DNA from: Candidatus Azotimanducaceae bacterium
Lineage (GTDB): Bacteria; Pseudomonadota; Gammaproteobacteria; Pseudomonadales; Azotimanducaceae
Length of the DNA: 64,000 nucleotides
Assembly (NCBI GenBank): GCA_965232595.1
Contig: OZ246983.1
Location: 1,352,022-1,416,021, forward strand
Direction: 5' to 3'
Shown: piece by piece, positions 2,111-59,244 of the stretch
Layout: each line of letters starts with the position of its first letter
Numbering within the stretch: the stretch's first letter is position 1
Position numbers and translations under genes: made by a program
Notes under the pieces: generated by a model
What the model saw: only the letters and a program-made list of their open reading frames with translations
Told to the model about the DNA's origin: nothing
Databases searched by the model: none

Positions 2111-3397
<1,287 letters not shown>

Positions 3398-3415
3398 ACC
3401 CGATACGGAACCGAT

Positions 3416-4411
3416 ATGTACGATGTCTACGGACTGGGTAACGCCCTGGTCGATATGGAATACACCATCGAGGACAGCTTCCTCACCGCCCACGACATTC
3501 CCAAGGGGCACATGACGCTGGTGGAAGAGCCGGTGATGGACGCCCTGGTGGCGGGACTCGACGGGCACGCGCCAACCCGGATGAGCGGCGGCTCTGCAGC
3601 CAACACGCTGATCGCCGTGCAGGGCTTCGGCGCCAGCACCTTCTACTCCTGCAAGGTCGCGGACGACGAGACGGGCCGGCACTTCCTCGACGATCTGGCC
3701 ACCGCCGGCGTGGTCACCAACGGCAACGCGGCCAGCGAAACCGGCAAGTCCGGACGCTGCCTGGTGCTGATCACGCCGGACGCGGAGCGGTCGATGAACA
3801 CCTTTCTCGGCATCTCCAGCGCTCTGACTCACCAGGAGCTGGACGAGGCGGCGCTCAGCCGGTCCCGCTACTTCTACGCGGAAGGCTACATGAGCTCAGC
3901 CGACGGCAGCCGGCAGGCAGCCATTACCGGCAGAGAGATGGCCGAGCAGGCTGGAGTGAAGACCTCGCTGTCGCTGTCAGATCCCAGCATGGTCGAGTTT
4001 TTCCGCGACGCGCTGGTGGAGATCCTCGGCAACGGGGTCGACCACCTGTTCTGCAACGAGGAGGAAGCGCTCACCTGGGCTGGGACCGATCGGATCGACG
4101 TTGCCGTCGCCGAGCTGAAAGACATCGGCCGCAACCTGAACATCACCCTGGGCGCCAAAGGCAGCCTGGCGGTGACCCCGGATGGTCAGGCGATGGTGCC
4201 AGGCTTCCCGGCGGAAGCGGTGGACACCACCGGCGCCGGCGACATGTACGCGGGCGGCTGCCTGTACGGCTGGAGCCAGGGCATGAGCGCGGAAGAAGCG
4301 GCGGGTCTCGGCAACTACGCGGCCGCTACCCTGGTCCAGGAGCTCGGCGCCAGGCTCAGAACCCAGCAGGCTTACTCGGAAACGCTCGGCGCCTACCGGG
4401 CGCTGCGCTGA
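3416..4411 (+). CDS. PfkB-family carbohydrate/nucleoside kinase, probable adenosine kinase
   Basis: It has the N-terminal GLGNALVD motif, a C-terminal DTTGAGD anion-hole motif, and is 331 aa. Confidence 0.7.
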   Translation: MYDVYGLGNALVDMEYTIEDSFLTAHDIPKGHMTLVEEPVMDALVAGLDGHAPTRMSGGSAANTLIAVQGFGASTFYSCKVADDETGRHFLDDLATAGVVTNGNAASETGKSGRCLVLITPDAERSMNTFLGISSALTHQELDEAALSRSRYFYAEGYMSSADGSRQAAITGREMAEQAGVKTSLSLSDPSMVEFFRDALVEILGNGVDHLFCNEEEALTWAGTDRIDVAVAELKDIGRNLNITLGAKGSLAVTPDGQAMVPGFPAEAVDTTGAGDMYAGGCLYGWSQGMSAEEAAGLGNYAAATLVQELGARLRTQQAYSETLGAYRALR

Positions 4412-5118
4412 TCAGCCAGATCCACGGGCAGCTCCGCTGCCATGCGGATCTCGTCCCGCTCGATCCGACAGCCGAAGGCGTGCACCTGCACGCCAGCGTC
4501 GGCGGCTGAACGCACGGCCGCGCCATAGGCGGGGTGAATCTCGTCCGCCAGCGTTGCCCGCCTGACCCCGGAATGCTGAACGCAGAACACGAGCGCTGCC
4601 CGCTCGCCGGCCTGCACCCGTCTGACAAGCGCCTGCACGTGCTTGAGCGCCCGCTCGCTGACCGCGTCCGGAAAGCTGCCGCGGCCATTTTCGTCGCAGA
4701 GCGTCATGTTCTTGACCTCCAGCCAGCAGGGCCCGCCATCGGCCGCTTCGAGCAGGAAGTCGAAGCGCCCGGCTTCATCGGGTATCACCGCCTCAGCCCG
4801 GGCCAGCTTCATGTCCGCGAAGGGCGCCAGAGCCTGCGCCTCGAGCGCCTCGCCGACCAGCTGGTTGGCCCGCGCCGTGTTGACTCCGACCCGACCGTTG
4901 CGGCTCAGCACCACTTCCAGGGTGTTCGGGTACTTTCTCTTCGGGTTGTCGGAGGTGGAGTACCAGGCTTCGGAGCCAGGCTCGGCGCAACCGAGCATGG
5001 CGCCGGTGTTCGGGCAGTGCACGGTCAGCGGCTGGCCGTCCCCGGTCTCCAGATCGGCCAGGAAGCGTTTGTAGCGTCTGATCAGCGTCGCGCTGGCAAG
5101 CGGCGGGTCGATCTTCAA
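4393..5118 (-). CDS. sfsA: Sugar fermentation stimulation protein SfsA
   Basis: The N-terminus LIRRYKRFLADL...HCPNTG is characteristic of SfsA. It lies in the conserved position next to dksA. Confidence 0.85.
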   Translation of the reverse strand: MKIDPPLASATLIRRYKRFLADLETGDGQPLTVHCPNTGAMLGCAEPGSEAWYSTSDNPKRKYPNTLEVVLSRNGRVGVNTARANQLVGEALEAQALAPFADMKLARAEAVIPDEAGRFDFLLEAADGGPCWLEVKNMTLCDENGRGSFPDAVSERALKHVQALVRRVQAGERAALVFCVQHSGVRRATLADEIHPAYGAAVRSAADAGVQVHAFGCRIERDEIRMAAELPVDLADQRSAR

Positions 5119-6290
5119 CCCGCCCTCCAGGCCTCGAGCGCCTCGCCGATCCGAGAGATGCCGAGGTCGATGTCGGCTTCCCCGGTGGTGTAGGCAAAGC
5201 GCACGTAGCGGTCGGCGAGATGGCTGCCGAAGTCGATGCCCGGCGTCACCGCCACCTGGTACTCATCGATCAGCCGCCAGCAGAAGGTCTCGGAGTCGAG
5301 CCCGGAGCTGCTGACGTCCACGTAGAGATAAAACGCGCCGTCCGGCTCCACCGGAATGCCCAGACCCAGACCCCGGAGGCCACTGGCCAGCTGATCGCGA
5401 CGCTCGGCAAACTGCTGCCGACGCGATTCGTGGATGGCCATCGCTGCGGGCTCGAAGGCAGCCAGGGCCGCGTGCTGGGCTATGCTCGACGGCGAGATGA
5501 ACAGGTTCTGAGCCAGCCTGCTCACCGGGTCGACGCAAGCCTCCGGCACCACCATCCAGCCGAGCCGCCAACCGGTCATTCCGAAGTACTTGGAAAAGCT
5601 GTTGAGGACGAAGATCTCCGGATTGACCGACAGTCCGGTCCGGTACTCCGGCTGCACATCTCCGTAAATCAGTCCCTGGTAGATCTCGTCGAGCAGAAAC
5701 AGGCCACCCCCGTCGTGCACCACCTCGATCAGCGCCTCGAGCCGCTCGCGGCTGACCAGGGCACCCGTCGGGTTTGCCGGTGAGCCGAGCAGCAGGCCCC
5801 GGGAGCGCTCCGTCCATGCCGCCCGCAGCGCTTCCGGCGTCAGCTGAAAGCCGTCGCTTGCGTCCACCTCGATCCGCGCCGGCACGGCGTTGACCAGGCC
5901 AACGAAGACCTCGTTGCAGGGATATCCCGGATCCGGCATGAGCAGCTCATCGCCCGGATCGAGCAGCAGGCCGGCGAGCAGCAGCAGGCCGCCGCTGGCG
6001 CCCGAGGTGACGACGATCCGCTCGGCAGGCACCTGCACGCCGGCGTTGGCCTCGTAGTACGCAGAGATCCGCTCCCGCAGGGCCGGCGTGCCGAGCGCCT
6101 GAGTGTATTTCGTGTGTCCTTCAGCAAGCGCTGCCTGACCCGCACTAACGATGGGCTCGGCGGTGTCGAAATCCGGCTCGCCAACCTCGAAATGGACAAC
6201 TTTAAGGCCCTGCTCCTCGAGCGACTTTGCCCGCTCCATGAGCTGCATGACCCGGAACGGGGCGATCTGATTCAGTCTGCGAGCGGTCAT
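5115..6290 (-). CDS. Class I/II PLP-dependent aminotransferase (AlaC/AspC-like)
   Basis: It has SFSKYFGMTGWRLGW with the PLP lysine, and an NPTG motif. I chose the internal start MTARRLNQIAPF (ATG at 6290), because the track ORF's N-terminal extension looks non-coding. Confidence 0.8.
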   Translation of the reverse strand: MTARRLNQIAPFRVMQLMERAKSLEEQGLKVVHFEVGEPDFDTAEPIVSAGQAALAEGHTKYTQALGTPALRERISAYYEANAGVQVPAERIVVTSGASGGLLLLAGLLLDPGDELLMPDPGYPCNEVFVGLVNAVPARIEVDASDGFQLTPEALRAAWTERSRGLLLGSPANPTGALVSRERLEALIEVVHDGGGLFLLDEIYQGLIYGDVQPEYRTGLSVNPEIFVLNSFSKYFGMTGWRLGWMVVPEACVDPVSRLAQNLFISPSSIAQHAALAAFEPAAMAIHESRRQQFAERRDQLASGLRGLGLGIPVEPDGAFYLYVDVSSSGLDSETFCWRLIDEYQVAVTPGIDFGSHLADRYVRFAYTTGEADIDLGISRIGEALEAWRAG

Positions 6291-48271: not shown

Positions 48272-48580
48272 TCATCGCTTCACCCTGGCGAAGAGGTCCA
48301 CCAGCTCATCGAACTTCTTCCGCTGCTCCTGCTCATCCCCTGACTGAATGGCAGACGCCACGCAGGTCGCGGTGTGGTCTTTCAGAATGGCATCTTCCAC
48401 TCTTGCCAGGGCCGACTTGATGGCCTGCACCTGCTGCAGCACCTCGATGCAGTAACGCTCCTCCTCAATCATTCTGCCGATGCCACGCACCTGCCCTTCG
48501 ATCCGGTTAAGGCGCCGTATGGTTGCTTCTTTATCGAGATTCACTTTCTGCTCCGTCGCTCTGGACCACGGGAGTCTCAT
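48272..48580 (-). CDS. csoR: CsoR-family copper-sensing transcriptional repressor
   Basis: It has RLNRIEGQVRGI and the x-C-H-C ligand pattern (RYC ... HTATC). An alternative GTG start at 48544 has a better Shine-Dalgarno sequence (GGAG). Confidence 0.85.
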   Translation of the reverse strand: MRLPWSRATEQKVNLDKEATIRRLNRIEGQVRGIGRMIEEERYCIEVLQQVQAIKSALARVEDAILKDHTATCVASAIQSGDEQEQRKKFDELVDLFARVKR

Positions 48581-48623
48581 GGCCGCCAGTAACTTTTGCG
48601 GTTACTTTGCGTCTTTCTTCAAC

Positions 48624-48644
48624 ATATACCCTATAGGGGTATAT
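48624..48644. promoter_or_regulatory. CsoR-type operator in the csoR/copA divergent region
   Basis: A perfect inverted repeat ATATACCC-tatag-GGGTATAT (the TACCC-N-GGGTA type). It lies between a possible -35 (TTCAAC, 48618..48623) and -10 (TATAGT, 48642..48647) for copA. Confidence 0.75.
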
Positions 48645-48653
48645 AGTATCGCG

Positions 48654-50387
48654 ATGAGAACGACCCGACCAGGCCGATTCAGTCGTCGGCAGATGCTTCG
48701 CCGCAGCACTGTCGCTGCCGCCAGCATGGCGGCATACGCAAGCCTGCCCAGCTGGGCGCGCGGCGAGATGACGGGCATCCGGGCGGATGCGAACAACACG
48801 TTTGATCTGGAAGTGAGCGAAAGCCGGCACCACGTTGGGGGCCGTCAGGGCCGGGCCATTCTGATCAACGACCAGCTACCGGCACCCCTGCTGCGCTGGC
48901 GGGAAGGCGAGCAGGTTACCCTCAACGTGACCAACCGGCTGAAGGAACCGACTTCCATCCATTGGCACGGGCTGCTCCTGCCTATGGAGATGGATGGCGT
49001 TCCGGGCGTCTCGTTTCCTGGTATTCCAGCCGGCGAGACTTTCACTTACCGCTTTCCGGTGCGCCAGGCAGGCACCTACTGGTATCACAGCCATTCAGGC
49101 CTGCAGGAACAGCTTGGGCACTACGGACCCATCATCATCGAACCGGCTCAGCCTGATCCGGTGCGCTTCGATCGGGAGCATGTCGTGGTGCTTTCCGACT
49201 GGAGCTTCGAGGATCCGAAGCGAATCGCGGCACGGCTCGGCAAGATGAGCGAGCTCTACAATCATCAGCAGCGAACGCTGCCGGAGTTTTTCGCCGATGT
49301 CCGCCGGGACGGCTGGCCCGCTGCATGGCGTGAGCGTGCCATGTGGGGGCGCATGCGCATGAACCCGACAGACCTCTCTGATGTCACTGCAGCCACCTAC
49401 ACGTTTCTCATCAACGGCTCGAGCTCCGCGGAAAACTGGACCGGCAGCTTCGAGCCGGGAGAGCGGGTGCGCCTGCGCTTCATCAACGCCAGCGCCATGA
49501 CGCTGTTCAACGTCCGAATCCCGGGCGTGGCCATGAACGTTGTCCAGGCTGACGGGCTGAACCTCCAGCCGGTGGAGACCGATGAGTTCCAAATCGGCAC
49601 CGCGGAAACCTACGACGTGGTGATCGAGCCCGACGCCGGCACCTACGCGCTGATCGCTGAGAGCATTGATCGCAGCGGCCAGGTGCGGGGCACCCTGAGC
49701 AGCGAAGGCCGGGCCATCGCTCCGATTCCGGAGCTGCGGGAACGCCCAACCCTGACCATGAAGGACATGGCGCACGGTTCGGGGACGACGGCTGATGGAG
49801 GTCAGGCTCACCATGCTCACCACCACGGCCATCAGGTTGCAGAGCCGCAACGACACGATCACCCAACAGGACCAGGGGTCGCGGCGCTGGCTGCCAATCC
49901 GGTGAATCGGCTGGCCGATCGACCGCTCGGGCTGGAAGCTGTCCCGCACCGGGTTCTGACCTATGGGGATCTTGCCAGCCTCGATCCCAATCCCGACCAG
50001 CGATTGCCGGAACGGGAGCTGGAGCTGCACCTCACCGGCAACATGGAGCGCTACATGTGGTCGTTCGATGGCCGGCGCTTCTCAGAGGTGGAGTCGCCCA
50101 TCCACTTCAATCTGGGCGAGCGCCTGCGCTTGACCCTGGTCAACGACACCATGATGAACCACCCGATTCATCTGCACGGGATGTTCTTCGACGTGGTGAA
50201 CGGCCAGGGCCCTCACAAACCCAGAAAACACACCATCATCGTCAAGCCCGGCGAGAAGCTGTCTGTCGACGTGACGGCCGACGCGCCCGGCGACTGGGCC
50301 TTTCACTGTCACCTGCTCTACCACATGCACGCCGGCATGATGCAGGTTGTCTCGGTCAGGCGTCGGCCGGAGGAGTCGCTGACATGA
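48654..50387 (+). CDS. copA: Multicopper oxidase CopA (Tat-exported)
   Basis: It has the Tat leader MRTTRPGRFSRRQMLRRS. The copper-ligand motifs HWHG, HSH, HPIHLHG and HCHLLYHMHAGM are present. It also has a His-rich insert. Confidence 0.93.
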   Translation: MRTTRPGRFSRRQMLRRSTVAAASMAAYASLPSWARGEMTGIRADANNTFDLEVSESRHHVGGRQGRAILINDQLPAPLLRWREGEQVTLNVTNRLKEPTSIHWHGLLLPMEMDGVPGVSFPGIPAGETFTYRFPVRQAGTYWYHSHSGLQEQLGHYGPIIIEPAQPDPVRFDREHVVVLSDWSFEDPKRIAARLGKMSELYNHQQRTLPEFFADVRRDGWPAAWRERAMWGRMRMNPTDLSDVTAATYTFLINGSSSAENWTGSFEPGERVRLRFINASAMTLFNVRIPGVAMNVVQADGLNLQPVETDEFQIGTAETYDVVIEPDAGTYALIAESIDRSGQVRGTLSSEGRAIAPIPELRERPTLTMKDMAHGSGTTADGGQAHHAHHHGHQVAEPQRHDHPTGPGVAALAANPVNRLADRPLGLEAVPHRVLTYGDLASLDPNPDQRLPERELELHLTGNMERYMWSFDGRRFSEVESPIHFNLGERLRLTLVNDTMMNHPIHLHGMFFDVVNGQGPHKPRKHTIIVKPGEKLSVDVTADAPGDWAFHCHLLYHMHAGMMQVVSVRRRPEESLT

Positions 50388-51178
50388 GGCAGAAGCTGAC
50401 CTGGGCGGTGCTCGCTGCCGTGACATTCCTGACTCCGCTATTTGCCGCGGCGCAATCGGACCCGATCGAGTTCGATGACGCTCCGGCATACGGCGAGCAC
50501 GCCGCCGACCACTACTTCGACGCCGGGCAGATGGCCGCCGTGATGGAGGCACAGCGGCACATGCACGGTGCCGCCAGGAACTGGATGGTGCTCGGCGAGC
50601 GTTTCGAGCTCACAAGCGATGACGAGTTCATCTGGGAGGCAGAGGGCTGGTACGGCGGGCAAATCAACCGACTCTGGCTTAAGACGGACGGCGAGACGGA
50701 TGCCAGCAGCGTCGAGGGAGCGGAACTGCAGGCGCTGTACAGCAGGGCGCTGCGACCCCACTGGGATCTGCAGCTGGGCTTTCGCCACGACTTCGAGCCA
50801 ACCCCATCACGCAGCCACGCGGTGCTGGCGCTGAAGGGGCTTGCTCCCTATCTGTTCGAAGTCGACGCCGCACTTTTTCTCTCCGAGAAAGGTGACCTTT
50901 CCGGGCGACTGGAAGCGGAGTACGAGCTCCGTCTCAGCCAGCGCCTGTTGCTGCAACCGAGAGCGGAGCTGGACTTCGCATTCTCCGGGGACGAGGCGGT
51001 CGGAGTTGGCAGCGGGCTCGGCGAGCTGGAACTCGGGCTGCGTCTCCGCTACGAGCTCCGCAAAGACTTCGCTCCTTACCTCGGCTACCAGTGGTCGAAG
51101 AAGTACGGCCGCACCGCGGAGCTTGCTGATGATCCAACCGCCAGCGGCGCCGTGCTCGGCATCCGCTTCTGGTTCTGA
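50384..51178 (+). CDS. copB: Copper resistance protein B (outer membrane)
   Basis: It has a signal peptide, CopB-family strands (LWLKTDGE...) and a terminal RFWF. Its ATG overlaps the copA stop (ATGA). Confidence 0.88.
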   Translation: MRQKLTWAVLAAVTFLTPLFAAAQSDPIEFDDAPAYGEHAADHYFDAGQMAAVMEAQRHMHGAARNWMVLGERFELTSDDEFIWEAEGWYGGQINRLWLKTDGETDASSVEGAELQALYSRALRPHWDLQLGFRHDFEPTPSRSHAVLALKGLAPYLFEVDAALFLSEKGDLSGRLEAEYELRLSQRLLLQPRAELDFAFSGDEAVGVGSGLGELELGLRLRYELRKDFAPYLGYQWSKKYGRTAELADDPTASGAVLGIRFWF

Positions 51179-51405
51179 GCAGCCATCCGCCTTCTGAAAA
51201 ACTGCTGACAAATCTTCCGACACTTCTTCTAACAAAGCTGCCAACACTCAACGAACGCGGCCGAAGCGAACAGACCACGCTCAGGATTGCAGCAAAGCGC
51301 CGGAGGCTGCTCAAAACTAATGAAAAAGAACGCTTGATTTGCGAGCAGGGAAGGATTATCCCTGCACTGCGGAACTGAGCTAACCAACACCGGAGCACGC
51401 ACACT

Positions 51406-51774
51406 ATGGCAACAGCAAAGAAAGCAGCGAAGAAAAAGGCAGCCAAGAAACGCCCTGCCAAGAAAGCAGCGAAGAAAAAGGTCGCTAAGAAGAAGACAGT
51501 AGCGCGGAAGAAGACCGCCGCGAAGAAGAAGGCACCCGCCAAGAAGAAGGCAGCTAAGAAGAAGGTAGCCAAGAAAAAGGTCGCTAAGAAAAAAGTTGCC
51601 AAGAAGAAGGTAGCAAAGAAGAAGAAGGCGCCTGCAAAGAAGAAGGCTGCCAAGAAAAAAGTTGCGAAGAAAAAGGTCGCTAAGAAGAAAGTAGCGAAGA
51701 AGAAGGTAGCCAAGAAAAAGGTTGCGAAGAAGAAGGCGGCCAAGAAGAAAACGACCGCCAGACGGAAGCGCTAG
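51406..51774 (+). CDS. Histone H1-like Lys/Ala-repeat basic protein (nucleoid-associated candidate)
   Basis: 122 aa made almost entirely of (A/V)AKKK pentapeptides. It resembles AlgP/BpH/Hc-type bacterial H1-like tails. Confidence 0.7.
51412..51759 (+). repeat. Coding tandem 15-nt (pentapeptide) repeats with a higher-order duplication
   Basis: About 20 copies of an aag-aag-aag-gtN-gcN unit. The block [31 protein letters not shown] occurs twice. Synonymous positions vary between copies. Confidence 0.9.
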
Positions 51775-51784
51775 GACCCGGTTC

Positions 51785-51826
51785 CTCGCCCGGTCGGTTC
51801 CAAGCACCGGGCGAGCGTTGTTTCGG
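51785..51826 (+). terminator. Stem-loop terminator after the H1-like gene
   Basis: A 10-bp stem ctcgcccggt/accgggcgag (51785..51815) is followed by cgttgtttcgg. Confidence 0.6.
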
Positions 51827-51828
51827 TC

Positions 51829-52587
51829 ATGCAGTTCCGCCGAAACCCGAACGCTTCGCATGCCTCGAACGGCAGGAAGCCCCTTGCGGGCGCTTCCTGC
51901 CGGTTCCTAACCGCCCTGTTGATCCTGTCTCTGTCGGCACACGCCCGCAGCGCAACCACCCTGCACTACGACGCCTACCTTTCCGGCGTCCCGATCGGTT
52001 CAGCGATTGTGGAGATCGAGCTGGACGCTCACACCTATCGGATCTCGGGCGTTGCCTACAGCGAGGGGGTGGCGCACCTGTTCAGCGACTGGCGCTCGGA
52101 CTTTCTGGCTGCCGGGAAATTACAGAACGAGGCACCGTTACTTACAGCCTATGCCTACGACGAGCGGGAGAGAAAGAAGCACCGTGTGCTCTGGCTGTCC
52201 AACGGCAGCGTGCGGCACGTGAAAAACGATCAGGTACGGCCAGCACACCCGGTGCGACCCGGCACCGACATCCTTACCGCGTTTTTTCTACAGGCCGACT
52301 GCTGGCCAGAAAAGGTCCTGCATACGGGGCGCTTCAGCTATCGGATGAAGGGCCGACCATCAGGCAAAGCCGACGGTTGCCACTTCGAAGTGCTGGACGC
52401 GGACGGCGACCGGGACCGCTTTTACGCCCGCTTCGGCCTGCACCAGGGGCTCCGGGTGCCGATCGAAGCGAGCACCCGGGGGATGCTGCGCGGTCGCATC
52501 AAGCTGCGCACGACGCCAGCAGACCAGTCCGCGCTGCTGGCGGCAAACCGCGGCCGCAAGGAAGACGCTGCGCGCGAACCGGATTGA
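51829..52587 (+). CDS. Secreted hypothetical protein, DUF3108-like
   Basis: It has a signal-like segment RFLTALLILSLSAHA and a beta-rich sequence (LHYDAYLSGVPIGSA...YRISG). The family assignment is from memory. The start has no Shine-Dalgarno sequence and abuts the terminator. Confidence 0.4.
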   Translation: MQFRRNPNASHASNGRKPLAGASCRFLTALLILSLSAHARSATTLHYDAYLSGVPIGSAIVEIELDAHTYRISGVAYSEGVAHLFSDWRSDFLAAGKLQNEAPLLTAYAYDERERKKHRVLWLSNGSVRHVKNDQVRPAHPVRPGTDILTAFFLQADCWPEKVLHTGRFSYRMKGRPSGKADGCHFEVLDADGDRDRFYARFGLHQGLRVPIEASTRGMLRGRIKLRTTPADQSALLAANRGRKEDAAREPD

Positions 52588-52588
52588 T

Positions 52589-53743
52589 TCAGGCGTTCAT
52601 CTCTTCGAGCACCTCGGGCAGCGCATCCACATACATCTGAACGTGTTCCAGCTGGCCCATGCTGACCCGGGACCAGTTGTCGTAGTCGCGGTAGATACCC
52701 CTGATCAGCACGTTCCGCTCCGCCATCTTCTGCCGGAACACCTCGGCATTGAGATCACCCAGATCGACGAACATGAAGTTGGTCGCTGAAGGTAAGGCCG
52801 TTAACCCGACCTCGGCCAGCCCTTTGCTCACCATCTCCTTGGCCTCGACGATCCTGGCCTTGGACATCTCCAGAAAGGCCAGGTCGTTATAGCTGGCAAC
52901 CGCTGCAGCCAGCCCGCCCTGATTCATGGCGTAGGAGCCGAGCCCGTAATCCAGCACCATCTTCTGCGTGGTCTCAGGCGAGGCGATGGTGTAGCCAACC
53001 CGCATGCCCGCCATGCCGTAGATCTTGGAGAAGGTCCTGGCAATGATCACGTCGTAGCCCTCGCGAACCAGATCAACCATGGAGGTGTACTCAGGGTCTT
53101 CCGTGATCTCGTTATAAGCCTCATCCACCAGAACCGTCGCCTTCCGCGAAGCCTTTTTGCAGAAAGCACGCAGCGCCTCACCATCCAGCACCAGGCCGGT
53201 GGGATTGTTGGGGTTGGTTATCTGCACCATCGAGATGTCGTCGCTGAGGGCCGCATACATGGCATCGAGATCGATGGCGAGGCCGTCGTCTTTCGGCAGC
53301 CGCACGATCTCGCCGGCGTGCCGCGTGCCCATCTTCAGCGTGGTGTCCCAGAACAGATCCGGCGCCAGGATGTTTCCCTGCGCGCCAGCCGCCGTGGCGA
53401 TGTAGGTCAGGACACCGCTCGAGCCGCTGGACAGCGCGACGTGCTCCGGCGTGACCCTGTGACGCTCTGCGATCATGGCCTTCAGCATGGGCACCGAAGC
53501 CCCGACGTAGTAGGCACCGAGTCGGGTGGCTGCAAACGCCTCCTTGATCGCCGCAGGGCTCGGGCCGTAGGGATTCTCGTTGGCGTTGAGCTTGGCGACG
53601 TTGGCAGCAGGCCCATAGGCAGGTGCTTTCGCGGCACCCGCAGACGAGACAGCGGCCGCCGGCGCGAGCAGCGCAGCCCCGCTGGCTGCTCCAGCTGCAG
53701 CAACGCTGCTGCCGAGAAAGTGACGACGGGAAAGTGATGACAT
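52589..53743 (-). CDS. HisC-family (class I/II) PLP aminotransferase with twin-arginine signal peptide, paralog 1
   Basis: It has the Tat leader MSSLSRRHFLGSS...AGAAKA, then LNANENPYGPSP, NPNNPTG and FSKIYGMAGMRVGY. Start at ATG 53743. Confidence 0.8.
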   Translation of the reverse strand: MSSLSRRHFLGSSVAAAGAASGAALLAPAAAVSSAGAAKAPAYGPAANVAKLNANENPYGPSPAAIKEAFAATRLGAYYVGASVPMLKAMIAERHRVTPEHVALSSGSSGVLTYIATAAGAQGNILAPDLFWDTTLKMGTRHAGEIVRLPKDDGLAIDLDAMYAALSDDISMVQITNPNNPTGLVLDGEALRAFCKKASRKATVLVDEAYNEITEDPEYTSMVDLVREGYDVIIARTFSKIYGMAGMRVGYTIASPETTQKMVLDYGLGSYAMNQGGLAAAVASYNDLAFLEMSKARIVEAKEMVSKGLAEVGLTALPSATNFMFVDLGDLNAEVFRQKMAERNVLIRGIYRDYDNWSRVSMGQLEHVQMYVDALPEVLEEMNA

Positions 53744-53754
53744 GAGAAGCCCCC

Positions 53755-54588
53755 TCAGACAGTGATTGACTTGTAGAACATGGTTGCGGCGACGAAGATC
53801 AGGTAGAAACCGAACAGACGTTTCAACCGCAGCTCGTCCAGGCTGTGCGCCCAGTTGGCGCCAATGGGCGCGGTGAAGATGGACAGCGCGCTGATCGCGA
53901 GCAGCGCCGGGATGTTGATGTAGCCGAGCGAGCCGAACGGCAAACCCTCGACGCCGAGACCTAAAACAAGGAAGCCAACGGTTCCGGGCACGGCGATGAT
54001 GAAGCCCACACCCGCGGCCGTGGCGACTGCCTGATGAACCGGCCGGTTGCACATCACCATGGTGATCACCGTAACGGTTCCGCCGCCGATGCCCAGCAGC
54101 GCCGAGAAGCCGCCGAGCGCCGATGCCAACCCCGCCCGGGCCACACCGGTCGGCATGTTCAGCGCCGGAATGCTGCGCTTGAAGAAATTGGGGAAGAGAA
54201 AATACAACGAGTAGGCAAACACGCCGATGGCGAACACCATGAACAGGCTGCGGCCATCGACGACGGCGGCAACGTAGAGACCGACGCCCACACCCATGAT
54301 CAGCCAGATCGACCAGTCTTTGAGCACGCCGAAATCCACTGCGCCTTTCGAGCGATGCACCTGCACCGATCGTGCGGAGGAAACGATGATGGACGCCAGA
54401 GAGGTGCCGATCGCCACGTAGATCAGCTCGGAGCCGGCTTCGCTGAACAGCGGGAATACGGCGAGCAGCGCCGGGACGACCACAAATCCCCCGCCGATGC
54501 CAAACAGGCCGGCAGTGATGCCCGCAACCGCCCCGGCTGCGCACATGGCGATGATCAACCCCAGCACTTCAGGTTGAAGCACTTCCAT
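53755..54588 (-). CDS. TauE/SafE-family anion permease (sulfite/organosulfonate exporter family)
   Basis: 277 aa with about 8 TM segments and the GLFGIGGGFVVVP and LLGIGGGTV repeats typical of the family. Its stop is 11 nt from the next start. Confidence 0.8.
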   Translation of the reverse strand: MEVLQPEVLGLIIAMCAAGAVAGITAGLFGIGGGFVVVPALLAVFPLFSEAGSELIYVAIGTSLASIIVSSARSVQVHRSKGAVDFGVLKDWSIWLIMGVGVGLYVAAVVDGRSLFMVFAIGVFAYSLYFLFPNFFKRSIPALNMPTGVARAGLASALGGFSALLGIGGGTVTVITMVMCNRPVHQAVATAAGVGFIIAVPGTVGFLVLGLGVEGLPFGSLGYINIPALLAISALSIFTAPIGANWAHSLDELRLKRLFGFYLIFVAATMFYKSITV

Positions 54589-54795
54589 CGGGTACGACTT
54601 AAACGAATGAACTTATAGCCCGATGAAATACAAGTTCCATGCCACGGCCATCGCGGCCGCCAGATCGCGCCTCTACGCGCTCAACGGCACCTCGACAGCC
54701 TTTCGCCTGGCTTTCGCCTACCTGTATTGGTGCGCCTGCACCGTCCTGGTGACCCCTATTGGGGCGGATTCAAGATTGAGAGGCGCAACCAGCGC

Positions 54796-55941
54796 TCAGG
54801 CGTTGAGCGCCTCGAGCACCGACGGCAGTGCGTCCACATACATCTGCACATGCTCGAGCCGGCCCATGCTGACCCGGGAGAAGTTGTGGTAATCCCGGTA
54901 AACGCCGCGAACCATGACGTTGCGCGCCGCCATCTGCTCCTGGAAGTCGTTTGCGTTCAGATTGCCCAGGTCGACGAACAGAAAGTTGGTCGCCGACGGC
55001 AGAGCGCTCAGCCCGTTGGCCCGCAGACCTTCTTCGATCATCTCCCGGCCTTCGAAGATCTTGGCCCGGGACATCTCCAGGAAGCCCTGATCGTTGTAGC
55101 TGGCAACCGCCGCCGCCATGCCCGCCTGATTGAGGGTGTAGTCACCCATCCCGTAGCTTTCGATGAGCGCGGTGTTCTCTTCCGAAGCGATGGTGTAGCC
55201 GACCCGCATGCCTGCCATGCCATAGATCTTCGAGAACGTTCTGGCGATGATCACATCGTGGCCTTCCCGGACCAGATCCACCATCGAGTAGTACTCAGGC
55301 CGATCGGTCAGCTCGTTGTAGGCCTCATCCACCAGCACGGTCGTCTTTTTCGCCGCCCGACGCGTAAAGGCGCGAAGCTCCTCACCATCGAGCAGCAGGC
55401 TGGTGGGGTTGTTTGGGTTGGTGACGTGAACGAGGGCGATGTCCTCGGTAATGGCCTTCTCCATCGCCGCCAGGTCGATGGCGAGCGATGCGGTCTTCGG
55501 CAATCGGACGATCTCGCCGCTCTGCCGGGTGCCACGACGAACCGTCGAGTCCCAGAAGAGATCCGGCGTCAGGATGTTGCCGCGCTGACCGGCAGCCGTG
55601 GCGATGAACGTGAGCACGGCACTGGAACCGTTGGCCAGGGCCACCTGCTCGGGCGTGACGCCGTTGCGCTCCGCGATCATGGCCTTGAGACGGCGCACCG
55701 TGTCCCAGACGTAGTAGGCGCCACCATCGCGAACCGCCTCGAAGGCAGCCTGCATGGCAGCGGGGCTCGGGCCGTAGGGGTTCTCGTTGGCATTGAGCTT
55801 GGCCACATGGGCTGCCGGGCCGTAAGCAGGACCGTTTGCTGACGCGCCTGCCGCGGCGAGCGAAATGCCCGGCCCGGCGGCCATCAGGCCCGTTGCGGCA
55901 GCGCTGCTGCCCAGAAACAATCGGCGTGATAGGTCTTTCAT
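54796..55941 (-). CDS. HisC-family (class I/II) PLP aminotransferase with twin-arginine signal peptide, paralog 2
   Basis: It has the Tat leader MKDLSRRLFLGSS...AAGASA and the same catalytic motifs as paralog 1. Start at ATG 55941 with GGGGAG upstream. Confidence 0.8.
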   Translation of the reverse strand: MKDLSRRLFLGSSAAATGLMAAGPGISLAAAGASANGPAYGPAAHVAKLNANENPYGPSPAAMQAAFEAVRDGGAYYVWDTVRRLKAMIAERNGVTPEQVALANGSSAVLTFIATAAGQRGNILTPDLFWDSTVRRGTRQSGEIVRLPKTASLAIDLAAMEKAITEDIALVHVTNPNNPTSLLLDGEELRAFTRRAAKKTTVLVDEAYNELTDRPEYYSMVDLVREGHDVIIARTFSKIYGMAGMRVGYTIASEENTALIESYGMGDYTLNQAGMAAAVASYNDQGFLEMSRAKIFEGREMIEEGLRANGLSALPSATNFLFVDLGNLNANDFQEQMAARNVMVRGVYRDYHNFSRVSMGRLEHVQMYVDALPSVLEALNA

Positions 55942-56021
55942 AACGCTCCCCTCGAGCACATCTCTCTAGCAACCCCCATAGAAACCCTTTGCTCCGCGAA
56001 ATGCCAGCCGGCGTCGCTCCC

Positions 56022-57125
56022 TCAGCCGGTCTCGTAGAAGAGCACACCACGGCGATCCCGATGACTCTCCGCCAGCCCCGCGTGGCGTAGATGCTCCAGG
56101 TGCGCATAGGTCTCACTTTCGGCCATGGACCCCCAACTGCGGGGCCGGAACAGCTGCTGCGAGTACTCCTTGACGCTGGCCGGGCGGCCGAAGCCCCGGG
56201 AGATCTCATGGATCTTATCCAGCCGCTCATGGTGGTGTGCTTTGATATCTTCGGCACGGCCCTTGAGGTCGCTGAACGGATGACCATGAGCAGGCAGCAC
56301 CTGCTCGATGCCCGGCAGCTCGCCGACCCGGTCCAGCGAGTAAAAGAACGACAGCAGCGGGTCCTCCGAGCTGGAAATGCCGGAGATGTGCGGGGTGATG
56401 GTGGGCAACACATGGTCACCGGCAATGAACACGCCGGCTTCCGGATCGTGCAGACAGAAGTGATCCGGCGTGTGGCCCGGCGTGTGCAGCACGAACATCT
56501 CCCGTCCGGCCAGATGAATCAGATCACCCTGCTCGACCGGATGGGTCACCTCGGGCACGTTCATGCCGCGACCCAGCATGCGGAACACCCGATAGAGCAG
56601 CCGCCGGCTGAGCGGTGGCCTCGGCGTCTCCCCGCCCCAGGGGGAGGGTCCACCCCACCACCCGCCCATATCCGACGAGCCGTGGCTGTGCGAGTGTTCC
56701 GGTTCGGCTGGCGCCTCGGCGTCCTGCTGTGCCTCCAGGTCGTTGAGCGAAACCTCCGGCTGGTTCTCGACGATGGACTTGGCCAGGCCAAACCGGAAGC
56801 TGCGGTGCGCAACCACCGTTGACCCGTACTCCTTCGCGAAGCGCTGCGCGCCCCCGAAGTGGTCCGGGTGCGAGTGGGTGATCAGCACCGTGTGCACGTC
56901 TTTCGGTTTCAGCTCCGCTTGCCTGAGCCGGTCCTGAATCGCCTGCCAGGTCCAGGGTCCGGGCAGGCCAGGATCGATCACGGCGGCACCGTTCTCATCC
57001 AGCAGGGCATACATGTTGACGTGACCCAGCCCTGGCATACGGATGGGCAACTGCATCCGCAGAATGTTCGGCGCAACTTCTGTGACTTCGGTTTTTGCAA
57101 CTTCCTGTTCCTGACGATGCGCCAT
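56022..57125 (-). CDS. MBL-fold metallo-hydrolase
   Basis: It has the HxHxDH motif (ITHSHPDHFGG) and later His and Asp ligands (HTPGHTPDH, AGDH, PAHGH). It carries a W/G/H-rich insertion and a C-terminal helical extension. Confidence 0.75.
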   Translation of the reverse strand: MAHRQEQEVAKTEVTEVAPNILRMQLPIRMPGLGHVNMYALLDENGAAVIDPGLPGPWTWQAIQDRLRQAELKPKDVHTVLITHSHPDHFGGAQRFAKEYGSTVVAHRSFRFGLAKSIVENQPEVSLNDLEAQQDAEAPAEPEHSHSHGSSDMGGWWGGPSPWGGETPRPPLSRRLLYRVFRMLGRGMNVPEVTHPVEQGDLIHLAGREMFVLHTPGHTPDHFCLHDPEAGVFIAGDHVLPTITPHISGISSSEDPLLSFFYSLDRVGELPGIEQVLPAHGHPFSDLKGRAEDIKAHHHERLDKIHEISRGFGRPASVKEYSQQLFRPRSWGSMAESETYAHLEHLRHAGLAESHRDRRGVLFYETG

Positions 57126-57142
57126 ATGCCTACCTTCTGTTG

Positions 57143-57496
57143 TTACCAGTGACCGTCCACGAGCACCGCTTCGCCATCACCGGGCCAGGGCGGCAGGGTG
57201 ACGGCCACCACCTTCAGCGGCGCGTCGCCGCTGACCCGAACCTGGAACGCGCAGCGTGCCTCCAGGGCGACCGCATCCCCCTCCTGCAGAGGGCGCAATT
57301 CAGCGTCGCCGGATTCCGGCGCCCGCCAGAGCTCTGCCGCGCCGGACAGGACGTACCAGAGCTCTTCCACCTGTTTGTGCCGGACCGCCTTGCTGATGCT
57401 TCCCGCGGCGAAGGTGAAGCGAGCCAGGCTGCCGCCGCTGACCCGCCCCAGCCGCTCGACTGTCGAGCCATCCGGCGCGATCTCAACGCCGCTCAC
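57143..57496 (-). CDS. Cupin-domain protein
   Basis: A small beta-barrel pattern (HKQVEELWYVLSGAAELW...EGDAVAL). The upstream part of the track ORF overlaps aqpZ, so I chose GTG 57496. The start is uncertain. Confidence 0.55.
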   Translation of the reverse strand: MSGVEIAPDGSTVERLGRVSGGSLARFTFAAGSISKAVRHKQVEELWYVLSGAAELWRAPESGDAELRPLQEGDAVALEARCAFQVRVSGDAPLKVVAVTLPPWPGDGEAVLVDGHW

Positions 57497-57509
57497 CGCG
57501 AGCTGCCGA

Positions 57510-58199
57510 TCAATCGGACTTGGAACCGACGAAGCGGTAGACCAGGGCGCCGAGCACCGCGCCGATGATCGGCGCCACCCAGAACAACCACAGCTGACCG
57601 ATCGCCCAGTCACCCACAAACACAGCAACCCCGGTGCTCCGTGCCGGGTTCACCGAGGTATTGGTCACCGGGATGCTGATCAGATGGATCAGGGTCAGGC
57701 CGAGGCCGATGGCGATGGGCGCAAAGCCGGCTGGCGCCCGGCCATCGGTTGCCCCAAGGATGATGAGCAGAAACATCATCGTCAGCACCACCTCGGTGAC
57801 CAGCGCCGCGGTCAGCGAGTAGCCGCCGGGCGAGTGCTCACCGTAGCCGTTGGCGGCAAAGCCGGCGCTGAGATCAAATCCGCTGGCGCCGCTGGCAATC
57901 AGGTAGAGCACGCCACCAGCGAGAATCCCACCGAGCACCTGAGCGATGATGTAGCCGGCAAGCTCTGAAGCCTCGAACCGACCGCCTGCCCAGAGCCCGA
58001 TGGAGACGGCCGGATTGAGGTGGCAGCCGGAGATGTGGCCAATGGCGTAGGCCATGGTGAGCACCGTCAGGCCAAATGCCAGCGACACCCCGAGCAGGCC
58101 GATGCCCACCTCCGGGAAACCTGCCGCGAGCACGGCGCTGCCGCACCCGCCAAGCACCAGCCAGAACGTACCCAGCAGCTCGGCGACGTATTTCTGCAT
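57510..58199 (-). CDS. aqpZ: Aquaporin Z
   Basis: It has two NPA boxes (HLNPAVS, SVNPARS) and the N-terminus [15 protein letters not shown]. Start at ATG 58199 with GGAGGAG upstream. Confidence 0.95.
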
Positions 58200-58315
58200 C
58201 AGTCTCTCCTCCCCAGGAAAGGGCCAGTATAGCCGATGACCCGGTGGCGTCGGCCCGGGCTGTTTAGGCGCGGCGGAATGGGCGAACATGGCCTTCCACC
58301 GGTAGAGAAGACAGC

Positions 58316-58786
58316 ATGAAAACAACGCTCCTGATGACAGCCATCCTGGTACCCGTTCTGGCCGGCGCAGAGGAACGCTCGCCGCTCGATGCCTTTCCCG
58401 AGCCCGCCGAGGGCCAGGTGCGAATCGTGATCCCGTTGCCGGAGATGAGCAGGCCGGACGACAACTACGCGGTTGAGCTTGTCGTCGGGCGGGTAATCCA
58501 GACCGACGGGGTAAACCAGGTGCGCATGGACACCGCCTTGAACCCCCGGCCGCTGGAAGGCTGGGGCTACACCTACTACGAGATGACGGGCAGCGGTCAG
58601 GTGGCCAGCACCCTCATGGCGCCGCCGCCTGGCGCCGAGACCGTCACTGCTTTCGTGCACGGCACGCCGCTGAACGTCCGCTACAACGCGAAGCTGCCGA
58701 TCGTGATCTACCTGCCCGCAGGCTTCGAAGCCCGCTATCGGATCTGGGCGGCCGCCGCTGACTATCTGACCGGCCAGGAAGGCTGA
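58316..58786 (+). CDS. eco: Ecotin (periplasmic serine-protease inhibitor)
   Basis: It has a signal peptide and shares [17 protein letters not shown] (reactive loop) and [11 protein letters not shown]...RYRIW with my recollection of E. coli ecotin. Confidence 0.85.
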
Positions 58787-58839
58787 TTACCGATCCGGGA
58801 CTCTGCTAAATTGCACGAAGCTAACAAGGGGAGAAACTC

Positions 58840-59244
58840 ATGAGCATTACGGGACAGTGCCTGTGCGGCAGCGTGCAGTACGAATTCGACAACCCGCCCG
58901 CCATGAACGGCGTGTGCCACTGCAAGAACTGCCAGCGTCAGGCCGGATCGGCTTTTTCCACGCTGGCCGGGGTACCCAAGGCGGAGTTCCGCTTCACTGA
59001 AGGAGAGCCGAAGCTCTACGAAGACACGGACACCGTCAGCGGCAACCGGGTGGAGCGCTGGTTCTGCGGCAACTGCGGCTCACCGATCTACTCTGCGCTG
59101 GATTCCAACGCCGACATGATCTTCCTGAAAACCGGCACCCTGGACGACACCAGCAGCTTCTCGCCGCAGTTTCACGTCTGGTGCGACAGCAAGCAGGATT
59201 GGGTGGACTTGGCAGAGGGCGTGCCGACGATGGCAACCCAGTGA
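58840..59244 (+). CDS. GFA (glutathione-dependent formaldehyde-activating / CENP-V) family protein
   Basis: It has the Cys pattern CLCGSV...CHCKNCQ...CGNCGSP. Confidence 0.8.
   Translation: MSITGQCLCGSVQYEFDNPPAMNGVCHCKNCQRQAGSAFSTLAGVPKAEFRFTEGEPKLYEDTDTVSGNRVERWFCGNCGSPIYSALDSNADMIFLKTGTLDDTSSFSPQFHVWCDSKQDWVDLAEGVPTMATQ

Follow-up and report, generated by a model that had tools for sequence, protein, structure and literature searches.

Why a bacterium should encode two pyridoxal phosphate (PLP) aminotransferases of the HisC fold, each behind a putative twin-arginine translocation (Tat) signal peptide, on either side of a permease of the TauE/SafE (TSUP) family is the question raised by a locus of Candidatus Azotimanducaceae bacterium (assembly GCA_965232595.1, contig OZ246983.1). 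The window, which here means the whole stretch of 64,000 nucleotides (nt) that was analysed, contains the aminotransferase AT-A, the permease, referred to below as TauE, and the aminotransferase AT-B, in this order of transcription, and all three minus-strand open reading frames (ORFs) were found where an earlier interpretation made from the letters alone (the sequence-only reading) had placed them. That interpretation had taken the two enzymes bracketing the permease as a periplasmic transamination module. Comparison with related loci gives a different core: the conserved unit is TauE followed by an aminotransferase, not the bracket. That this unit represents a Tat-exported transaminase functionally coupled to TauE is highly probable, and the best explanation of the locus as a whole, to which we assign a probability of about 50%, is a periplasmic module for transamination, regulated by nitrogen, in which the permease would carry the carboxylate partner.

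Conservation of the TauE-aminotransferase pair

TauE is encoded directly upstream of an aminotransferase, on the same strand, in six contexts annotated with Pfam (L002 and L003, both from Congregibacter litoralis KT71, and L004, L005, L006 and L007). The adjacency was surveyed in 80 further genome loci, with counts made on non-redundant loci and split at an aminotransferase identity to AT-B of 46%. TauE is directly upstream in 33 of the 38 loci with an aminotransferase at least 46% identical to AT-B and in one of the 47 loci below this value, the gap between the two genes having a median of 63 nt across loci. In the reverse test the TauE protein served as query against metagenome contigs and loci with room downstream were counted; an aminotransferase follows in 17 of the 20 loci with a TauE at least 47% identical, and follows none of the TauE homologs below 47% identity. 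The aminotransferase-TauE adjacency in related genomes, on which the sequence-only reading had staked itself, is therefore conserved in both directions, and this implies that the pair is a co-inherited module with a dedicated TauE subfamily. The carriers include Halieaceae, Azotimanducaceae, Microbulbifer, Alteromonas, SAR86 (L016), Erythrobacter, Aurantiacibacter and Novosphingobium, and the hosts of the module are marine Pseudomonadales, Alteromonadales and Sphingomonadales. The best matches in a plasmid and chromid collection (40%) are from Novosphingobium, in unannotated records.

In the window the TauE stop codon (TGA, 53755-53757) and the AT-B start codon (ATG at 53743) are separated by exactly 11 nt, as had been read earlier, and this short junction with its Shine-Dalgarno run implies that TauE and AT-B are probably co-transcribed. 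A gap of 207 nt, holding a conserved promoter-like region, lies between the AT-A stop codon and the TauE start. Beyond TauE and the aminotransferase, the only neighbour to recur is a TonB-dependent receptor, which adjoins 12 loci and whose orthologs are 52-67% identical to one another. The receptor gave generic plug-domain matches only in NCBIfam and the PDB, with no clue to its substrate. A dedicated TauE-aminotransferase subfamily or module was not found described in the literature searched (TauE with aminotransferase and nitrogen; periplasmic aminotransferases), and as far as that literature shows the dedicated TauE subfamily, the link with the receptor and the sigma-54/NtrC-type control described below are new. 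In C. litoralis (L002) a class-V aminotransferase (440 amino acids) and a DAO-family FAD oxidoreductase (389 amino acids) are encoded divergently upstream of the receptor-TauE-aminotransferase unit (2976..5541, minus strand), and a DJ-1/PfpI protein is encoded downstream of it.

The permease itself is a clear member of PF01925 (E 9.8e-39; 133.9 bits against a gathering cutoff of 32.6), residues 16-270 aligning with profile positions 2-237 of 237. No NCBIfam model of a named TauE, SafE or TSUP protein matches it, and a structure search returned no related solved structure. The substrates of the family had been given as sulfite, sulfonates and similar small anions, which is too narrow, as the TSUP family has a broad range with few characterised members and its member KbuT is needed for the use of alpha-ketobutyrate in Neisseria meningitidis (PMC12671195). 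The window permease is best inferred to supply or remove an anionic amino or keto substrate; the narrower assignment, in which it would move the carboxylate partner of the transamination, has in KbuT one precedent for the handling of a 2-oxo acid and is put forward tentatively.

Twin-arginine leaders of the aminotransferases

Both aminotransferases begin with the features of a Tat substrate, LSRRLFLG...ASA in AT-A and LSRRHFLG...AKA in AT-B, with a moderately hydrophobic stretch and a position before the fold, whose conserved YGP..AKLNANENP block begins at residue 40 in AT-A and 43 in AT-B. The leaders had been recognised in the sequence-only reading, and their twin-arginine (RR) motif is conserved as protein throughout the family. 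A motif of the form [S/T/N]RRxF/L is present near the N-terminus in 116 of the 120 closest homologs, the four without it resembling truncated gene calls, and in these homologs the Ala/Gly-rich stretch after the RR pair varies freely, with the YGP..AKLNANENP block some 40 residues on. The motif is likewise found in all 27 proteins of the AT-A clade, where the hydrophobic region is again variable, in 49 of 50 distant loci (33-49% identity; Bacteroidota, Alpha- and Betaproteobacteria, Acidobacteriota) and in 116 of the 133 full-length cluster representatives nearest AT-B in a library of 1.8 billion proteins. The earlier statement that HisC-family enzymes are cytoplasmic is thus too absolute, the nearest 130 or so sequence clusters being mostly RR-bearing.

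Several further observations bear on the reality of the leaders. Each aminotransferase ATG is preceded by a Shine-Dalgarno sequence (GGGGAG at 4-5 nt in the case of AT-A), and no other in-frame methionine occurs before about residue 87-90. The NCBIfam profiles of PRK09105 and of the periplasmic transaminase PtaA align to the window enzymes from residue 1-2, so that the leader belongs to those family models, and AlphaFold models residues 1-37 of AT-B as disordered, the fold beginning directly after them. The organism evidently uses the Tat pathway, since a multicopper oxidase encoded nearby bears an RR leader too. From these features we infer that AT-A and AT-B are exported to the periplasm via Tat.

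Most members of the RR-leader family are annotated as histidinol-phosphate aminotransferase or transaminase, yet the members tested score below the HisC cutoff, and this naming is probably a systematic mis-annotation. Two irregular proteins were met among the homologs. In P0123 (690 amino acids) the TauE ORF is read through into an aminotransferase; a natural TauE-aminotransferase fusion was considered, but the aminotransferase part retains its own methionine and RR leader, and the protein was treated as a gene-call or assembly artefact. P0142 (603 amino acids) has an internally duplicated aminotransferase core and looks like an artefact of the same kinds.

Active site, fold and family

A full-length alignment of AT-A and AT-B gives 68% identity and 82% similarity, in agreement with the two-thirds identity estimated by eye. 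Both match PF00155 (E 2.9e-45 and 2e-44, respectively), which, with the PF01925 match of the middle ORF, bears out the proposed family assignments. The catalytic motifs had been described as complete in both enzymes, and this holds for the stretches LNANENPYGPSP and FSKIYGMAGMRVGY, which are common to the two; NPNNPTG, on the other hand, is found in AT-B only, AT-A having NPNNPTS instead. The equivalents of Escherichia coli HisC Y55, N157, D184, Y187, T211, S213, K214, R222, R322 and R335 are invariant in the alignment. The transaminase active site therefore appears intact in AT-A and AT-B, for which activity is predicted, and the two retained arginines corresponding to R322 and R335, which bind acidic groups of the substrate, would fit a partner of the glutamate/2-oxoglutarate type.

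The fold and the PLP residues are those of HisC: the AlphaFold model of AT-B (predicted local distance difference test score 85, predicted template-modelling score 0.83) has 3LY1 as its best Foldseek match (TM 0.89, 31% identity), an entry that is also the best PDB sequence match (E 4e-38), and matches several HisC structures with TM 0.7-0.9. The HisC equivalog model TIGR01141, however, gives 209.3 bits for AT-A and 201.2 bits for AT-B, both below its cutoff of 276.55, and identity to E. coli HisC (b2021) is 24%. Three HisC residues, Y20, D85 and Y110, which we take to hold the imidazole and phosphate of histidinol phosphate, are not retained, D85 aligning with Ser, Y110 with Phe or Trp, and the Y20 region being replaced by the leader. 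The neighbourhood in the window is free of his genes, as are the related loci examined. Judged by scores and pocket residues, the window aminotransferases are not HisC proper.

The best NCBIfam model is NF006580 (PRK09105), with 234.1 bits for AT-A and 231.7 bits for AT-B against a cutoff of 444, the match covering residues 2-377 and 2-380, respectively, and including the leader. The PtaA equivalog model NF051461 aligns with residues 1-371 of AT-A (E 7e-54) and 1-374 of AT-B (E 1e-52), with scores of 182.8 and 178.7 bits against a cutoff of 500. On these scores the window enzymes are relatives of PtaA which lie outside the PtaA equivalog.

The region upstream of TauE

The promoter-like region upstream of TauE contains a candidate -24/-12 element of the sigma-54 type. 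Across loci it takes the form TGGCAC-N5-TTG(A/C/T)A and lies 25-135 nt upstream of TauE; the window version, TGGCAT-N5-TTGTA, has the GG and the spacing, and its -12 part reads GT (TTGT, where TTGC is canonical). Of 35 loci, 18 have the element in the sense orientation, compared with a mean of 1.0-1.5 (maximum 5) in shuffled sequences and four in the antisense orientation. Footprint alignment revealed a second conserved block 50-170 nt further upstream, the palindrome GCAC-N7-GTGC, which matches the NtrC consensus TGCACC-N5-GGTGCA; 11 loci have both the element and the palindrome, where 0.09 would be expected (at most 1 across 200 dinucleotide shuffles). In unrelated metagenome loci which had no part in motif discovery, the element was found in nine of the 16 TauE-aminotransferase loci, always with at most one mismatch, against two weak matches among 56 TauE genes without an aminotransferase. 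The receptor genes are preceded by a canonical TGGCAC-N5-TTGCT in eight of the 12 loci, the four without it being of the Alteromonas type.

No gene for an enhancer-binding protein with a GAFTGA motif was found in the window or next to any TauE-linked module. This points to a global activator, and the NtrC-type sites together with the lack of a local activator suggest that induction is most likely by nitrogen limitation. On consensus matches of this kind, we lean towards sigma-54-dependent nitrogen control of the module. Iron regulation was considered and rejected: of the 35 regions upstream of TauE, a single one matches a Fur box, weakly and with five mismatches, and the other 34 give no match.

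No riboswitch or other RNA element was found, Rfam searches of window positions 51000-59000 being empty at E<=1 and those of six related loci giving tRNAs only, and neither sigma-70 promoters nor intrinsic terminators were matched at window positions 52300-58500. An 89-amino acid ORF (54623..54892, plus strand), antisense to the AT-A/TauE intergenic region, was dismissed as a gene because it matches no family and shares sequence with the conserved promoter-like block.

Origin of the second aminotransferase

Neighbour-joining groups the 27 proteins of the AT-A clade and the 19 of the AT-B clade as sister clades, both of which are nested within the TauE-linked family. The arrangement of cupin, metallo-beta-lactamase (MBL)-fold, AT-A, TauE and AT-B genes recurs in two relatives (L004/L044 and L170), AT-A orthologs occur without TauE and AT-B in L001 and L169, and in L005 the cupin-MBL genes stand near a receptor-TauE-aminotransferase unit from which AT-A is absent. 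The tree and this pattern of recurrence and absence imply that AT-A is a lineage-specific tandem duplicate whose orthologs can also stand alone, so that the bracketing to which the sequence-only reading had given the rank of a module is not the conserved feature. The AT-A clade is set apart by three positions only (G110A, T134S and I347V), all conservative and next to pocket positions, and with so few differences the specificity of AT-A is probably close to that of AT-B.

Function of the module and alternative explanations

In the favoured model of a nitrogen-regulated transamination module, the aminotransferase would fold and bind PLP in the cytoplasm and would then be exported to the periplasm by Tat, as PtaA is. 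In Gammaproteobacteria the operon, and frequently the TonB-dependent receptor with it, would be read from a sigma-54 promoter with NtrC-type enhancer sites, nitrogen limitation being the most likely inducer. An amino compound would enter the periplasm, the dedicated receptor being its route in some genomes, and the exported aminotransferase would exchange its amino group with a 2-oxo acid. TauE would export the 2-oxo acid acceptor or import the 2-oxo acid or amino acid product, by which the cycle between PLP and pyridoxamine phosphate (PMP) could be kept turning outside the cytoplasm and the cell could capture the nitrogen. In the Candidatus Azotimanducaceae-like lineage, tandem duplication of the aminotransferase gene would have placed AT-A upstream of TauE and behind the MBL-fold gene, giving the apparent bracket.

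Several observations weigh against this model. With regard to the substrate, the window locus has no TonB-dependent receptor, no conserved neighbour among the surveyed loci indicates a substrate, and where a dedicated receptor is present it suggests one specific, possibly larger, substrate over general nitrogen scavenging. The AT-A orthologs without an adjacent TauE (L001, L169) imply that a dedicated permease is not obligatory. With regard to regulation, the -12 part upstream of TauE usually reads TTGAA or TTGTA and not TTGC, NtrC is proposed on the basis of a loose consensus only, the -24/-12 element is missing from the alphaproteobacterial and Alteromonas-type loci, and AT-A has no sigma-54 element of its own. 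The Alteromonas-type loci instead have a divergent LysR regulator; its best NCBIfam match is the nitrogen assimilation regulator NAC, which would speak for nitrogen control, but the score is far short of the cutoff (133 bits against 309).

The alternative that survives best is PtaA-like tailoring of a specific secreted or re-imported secondary metabolite, for instance one of the siderophore type with a free alpha-amino acid group, where the receptor would import the compound and TauE would move it or a by-product. Tailoring of this kind is what PtaA, the only characterised relative, performs on pyoverdine, PtaA-like genes being present also in species that make none (PMC6206403). In its favour, too, a TonB-dependent receptor adjoins 12 of the 38 loci, with a plug domain similar to that of receptors for siderophores and B12. 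The promoters, however, are of the sigma-54/NtrC type and not iron-regulated, with Fur boxes wanting as described above, no nonribosomal peptide synthetase or siderophore biosynthesis genes are found among the conserved neighbours, the score of 183 bits is far from the PtaA-model cutoff of 500, and the module is also encoded in SAR86 (L016). We consider this alternative rather unlikely.

An involvement in the metabolism of sulfonates or sulfo-amino acids, in which the aminotransferase would deaminate a taurine-, cysteate- or homotaurine-like compound and TauE would export sulfite or a sulfonate, was the premise of the sequence-only reading; it is in keeping with the clear PF01925 membership of the permease, and marine hosts meet abundant sulfonates. 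Known desulfonation is nevertheless cytoplasmic, whereas the aminotransferase has a Tat leader, no Xsc, CuyA, SuyAB or sulfite dehydrogenase is encoded among the conserved neighbours, and no named TauE/SafE model of NCBIfam was matched. Given also the broad range and few characterised members of the TSUP family noted above (PMC12671195), a role in sulfonate metabolism is improbable.

Slightly less probable again is a cofactor service, in which TauE would supply or recover vitamin B6 forms (PLP or PMP) for the exported enzyme. Periplasmic regeneration of PLP from PMP is an acknowledged open point and is regarded as unresolved in a review of the field (PMC6206403), and the tight one-to-one co-inheritance of TauE and aminotransferase would fit a dedicated helper. 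Against this, Tat exports the enzyme already loaded with its cofactor (PMC6206403), PLP is restored by a 2-oxo acid in the normal course of a transaminase cycle, with no need for cofactor exchange, and both the AT-A orthologs in L001 and L169 and 46 of the 47 distant Tat-aminotransferase loci do without TauE. The literature searched gave no account of a TSUP protein that transports B6. Finally, the notion that AT-A and AT-B are ordinary cytoplasmic HisC paralogs with mis-called starts, next to TauE by chance, to which the source annotation of homologs as histidinol-phosphate aminotransferase and the 201-209 bits given by TIGR01141 might lend some colour, is effectively refuted by the comparative data, namely a leader with an invariant RR pair conserved as protein across hundreds of homologs, the Shine-Dalgarno sequences and late alternative methionines, the sub-cutoff score with D85 and Y110 replaced, and an adjacency retained in both directions with no his genes nearby.

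The locus is of wider interest in that a family annotated mostly as histidinol-phosphate aminotransferase overwhelmingly has RR leaders, and one of its subfamilies is tied to a permease, often to a receptor, and to a promoter of nitrogen-stress type. The TauE-aminotransferase module offers a testable system in the cultured C. litoralis KT71, Microbulbifer and Alteromonas, with which the substrates of periplasmic transaminases, the source of their co-substrate and the cargo of TSUP permeases can be addressed. Since SAR86, the OM60/NOR5 group and Alteromonas, all common in the sea, are among the carriers, the module may matter for how dissolved organic nitrogen is used. A broader and decidedly speculative extension, which we think unlikely, is a widespread and so far unrecognised form of extracytoplasmic nitrogen capture in marine Gamma- and Alphaproteobacteria: under nitrogen limitation a Tat-exported PLP transaminase would remove amino groups from compounds taken in by a dedicated TonB-dependent receptor, a dedicated TSUP permease would shuttle the 2-oxo acid/amino acid partner across the inner membrane, and Bacteroidota would have a SusCD-linked analogue. 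If true, it would explain the recycling from PMP of PtaA and other periplasmic PLP enzymes.

Features and neighbouring genes in the window

The features of the locus are collected in Table 1.

Table 1. Coordinates of the aminotransferase-permease locus and its predicted elements in the window
Feature	Position	Strand	Basis and remarks
AT-A, HisC-fold PLP aminotransferase with predicted Tat leader, 381 amino acids	54796..55941	-	ORF, PF00155 and similarity to AT-B; lineage-specific extra paralog
AT-A predicted twin-arginine signal peptide, residues 1-35, MKDLSRRLFLGSS...AGASA	55837..55941	-	SRRLFLG, Ala/Gly-rich hydrophobic region and ASA site; putative cleavage site
AT-A codon of the PLP Schiff-base lysine K238 (in FSKIYG)	55228..55230	-	Aligns with E. 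coli HisC K214
Candidate NtrC-type palindromes GTCACCAGGACGGTGCA (54737..54753) and CGCACCAATACAGGTAG (54718..54734)	54718..54753	-	About 75-110 nt upstream of the -24/-12 element; consensus match only
Candidate sigma-54 type -24/-12 element TGGCATGGAACTTGTA	54629..54644	-	Starts 56 nt upstream of the TauE ATG; consensus match
TauE/SafE (TSUP) family inner-membrane permease, 277 amino acids	53755..54588	-	PF01925; subfamily dedicated to the aminotransferase
TauE/AT-B junction gggggcttctc, 11 nt, with Shine-Dalgarno run	53744..53754	-	Read from the sequence
AT-B, HisC-fold PLP aminotransferase with predicted Tat leader, 384 amino acids	52589..53743	-	ORF, PF00155 and AlphaFold/fold match; conserved partner of TauE
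AT-B predicted twin-arginine signal peptide, residues 1-40, MSSLSRRHFLGSS...AGAAKA	53624..53743	-	SRRHFLG and Lys in the c-region; putative cleavage site
AT-B codon of the PLP Schiff-base lysine K240	53024..53026	-	Aligns with E. coli HisC K214

Upstream of AT-A, and separated from it by 80 nt, genes for an aquaporin (MIP), a cupin and an MBL-fold hydrolase are found on the minus strand (56022..58325). The best NCBIfam match of the hydrolase is the Strvi_7410 family, far below the cutoff, and the cupin-MBL pair is conserved in the lineage of the window even where AT-A is lacking (L005). On the other side of the locus, a protein with a weak DUF3108 match and an N-terminal signal-like sequence (51829..52587, plus strand) is encoded convergently with AT-B, the stop codons being 2 nt apart; this neighbour is kept in L001, L004 and L170 and is not conserved outside the lineage of the window. 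Beyond it, a 122-amino acid Lys/Ala-rich protein of AKKK-type repeats (51406..51774, plus strand) has a composition like that of histone H1, and genes for proteins of 121-127 amino acids with no Pfam match occupy the same position in L001 and L004. A copper-resistance island (48272..51178) follows, comprising a CsoR-like repressor (48272..48580, minus strand), a CopA-like multicopper oxidase and a CopB-like protein (ending at 51178, plus strand); it is present in the relative L004 and absent from the same position in L001. The multicopper oxidase ORF (48480..50387, plus strand), whose RR leader was mentioned above, likely has its true start near 48654 (MRTTRPGRFSRRQML).

Comparison with known systems

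Periplasmic PLP chemistry is rare, PtaA and PvdN being the characterised examples. The sequence-only reading knew of no characterised system of the type proposed here, but a Tat-exported HisC-like transaminase is a kind already known since 2017 in PtaA, the "periplasmic transaminase A" of fluorescent pseudomonads, a PLP transaminase which Tat exports in folded form with the cofactor bound and which turns the glutamate side chain of pyoverdine into alpha-ketoglutarate (PMC6206403). The signal peptide of Pseudomonas aeruginosa PA2531 (MPALSRRSFV...) has been experimentally validated as a Tat signal (PMC6085387). The window aminotransferases resemble PtaA in being HisC-like PLP aminotransferases with an N-terminal SRRxF leader (SRRLFLG and SRRHFLG here, SRRSFV in PA2531). 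They differ in the N-terminal motif, which is LDFNESPYGPS in PA2531 and LNANENPYGPS in the window enzymes, and in context, PtaA belonging with pyoverdine and aminotransferases of the window type having no pvd genes among their conserved neighbours. They are further distinguished by the TauE permease and the sigma-54 type promoter, neither of which the literature searched gave for PtaA, whose own neighbourhood was not compared.

PvdN is also exported with its PLP cofactor by Tat, as is predicted for the window enzymes, and acts on an amino acid side chain in the periplasm during pyoverdine maturation (PMC6206403, PMC6085387). It is a different PLP enzyme, which converts the glutamate side chain to succinamide without transamination, and it is encoded in the pvd cluster with no permease partner described. 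HisC shares with AT-A and AT-B the fold and the PLP-binding and carboxylate/phosphate-binding residues, but is a cytoplasmic enzyme typically found in a his context, whereas the window enzymes have a Tat leader, no his operon and a sub-cutoff TIGR01141 score. The PRK09105/3LY1 group is closest by model (NF006580), though again below the cutoff, and 3LY1 is a structural-genomics entry from Pectobacterium without an assigned function. Among TSUP permeases (TauE, SafE and KbuT), a family which moves small organic and inorganic anions, the window TauE is a clear PF01925 member, and its subfamily is marked out by the link to a Tat-exported aminotransferase.

The nearest parallel in layout comes from Bacteroidota, where distant homologs of the Tat-leader aminotransferases occur without TauE. 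In the 50 distant loci, a polytopic membrane protein of 377 amino acids, which is unrelated to TauE and matched no Pfam or NCBIfam family, is encoded directly downstream of the aminotransferase in 23 cases, SusC/SusD are encoded upstream in 11-15 cases, and a flavin amine oxidase with an RR leader of its own is present in nine. Bacteroidota loci among L042-L087 (e.g. L066, L067, L078 and L084) combine SusC/SusD, the Tat-leader aminotransferase and the 377-amino acid protein, nine of them also encoding the amine oxidase and a Hint-domain protein. By their gene content these look like an uncharacterised uptake locus for amino compounds. Like the TauE-linked modules, they combine an exported HisC-like aminotransferase with a TonB-dependent importer in the outer membrane and a polytopic protein in the inner membrane, but differ in that the aminotransferase is only 33-40% identical, the membrane protein is not TauE and some add the Tat-leader amine oxidase. 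The same three-layer layout seems to have been assembled independently in Bacteroidota.

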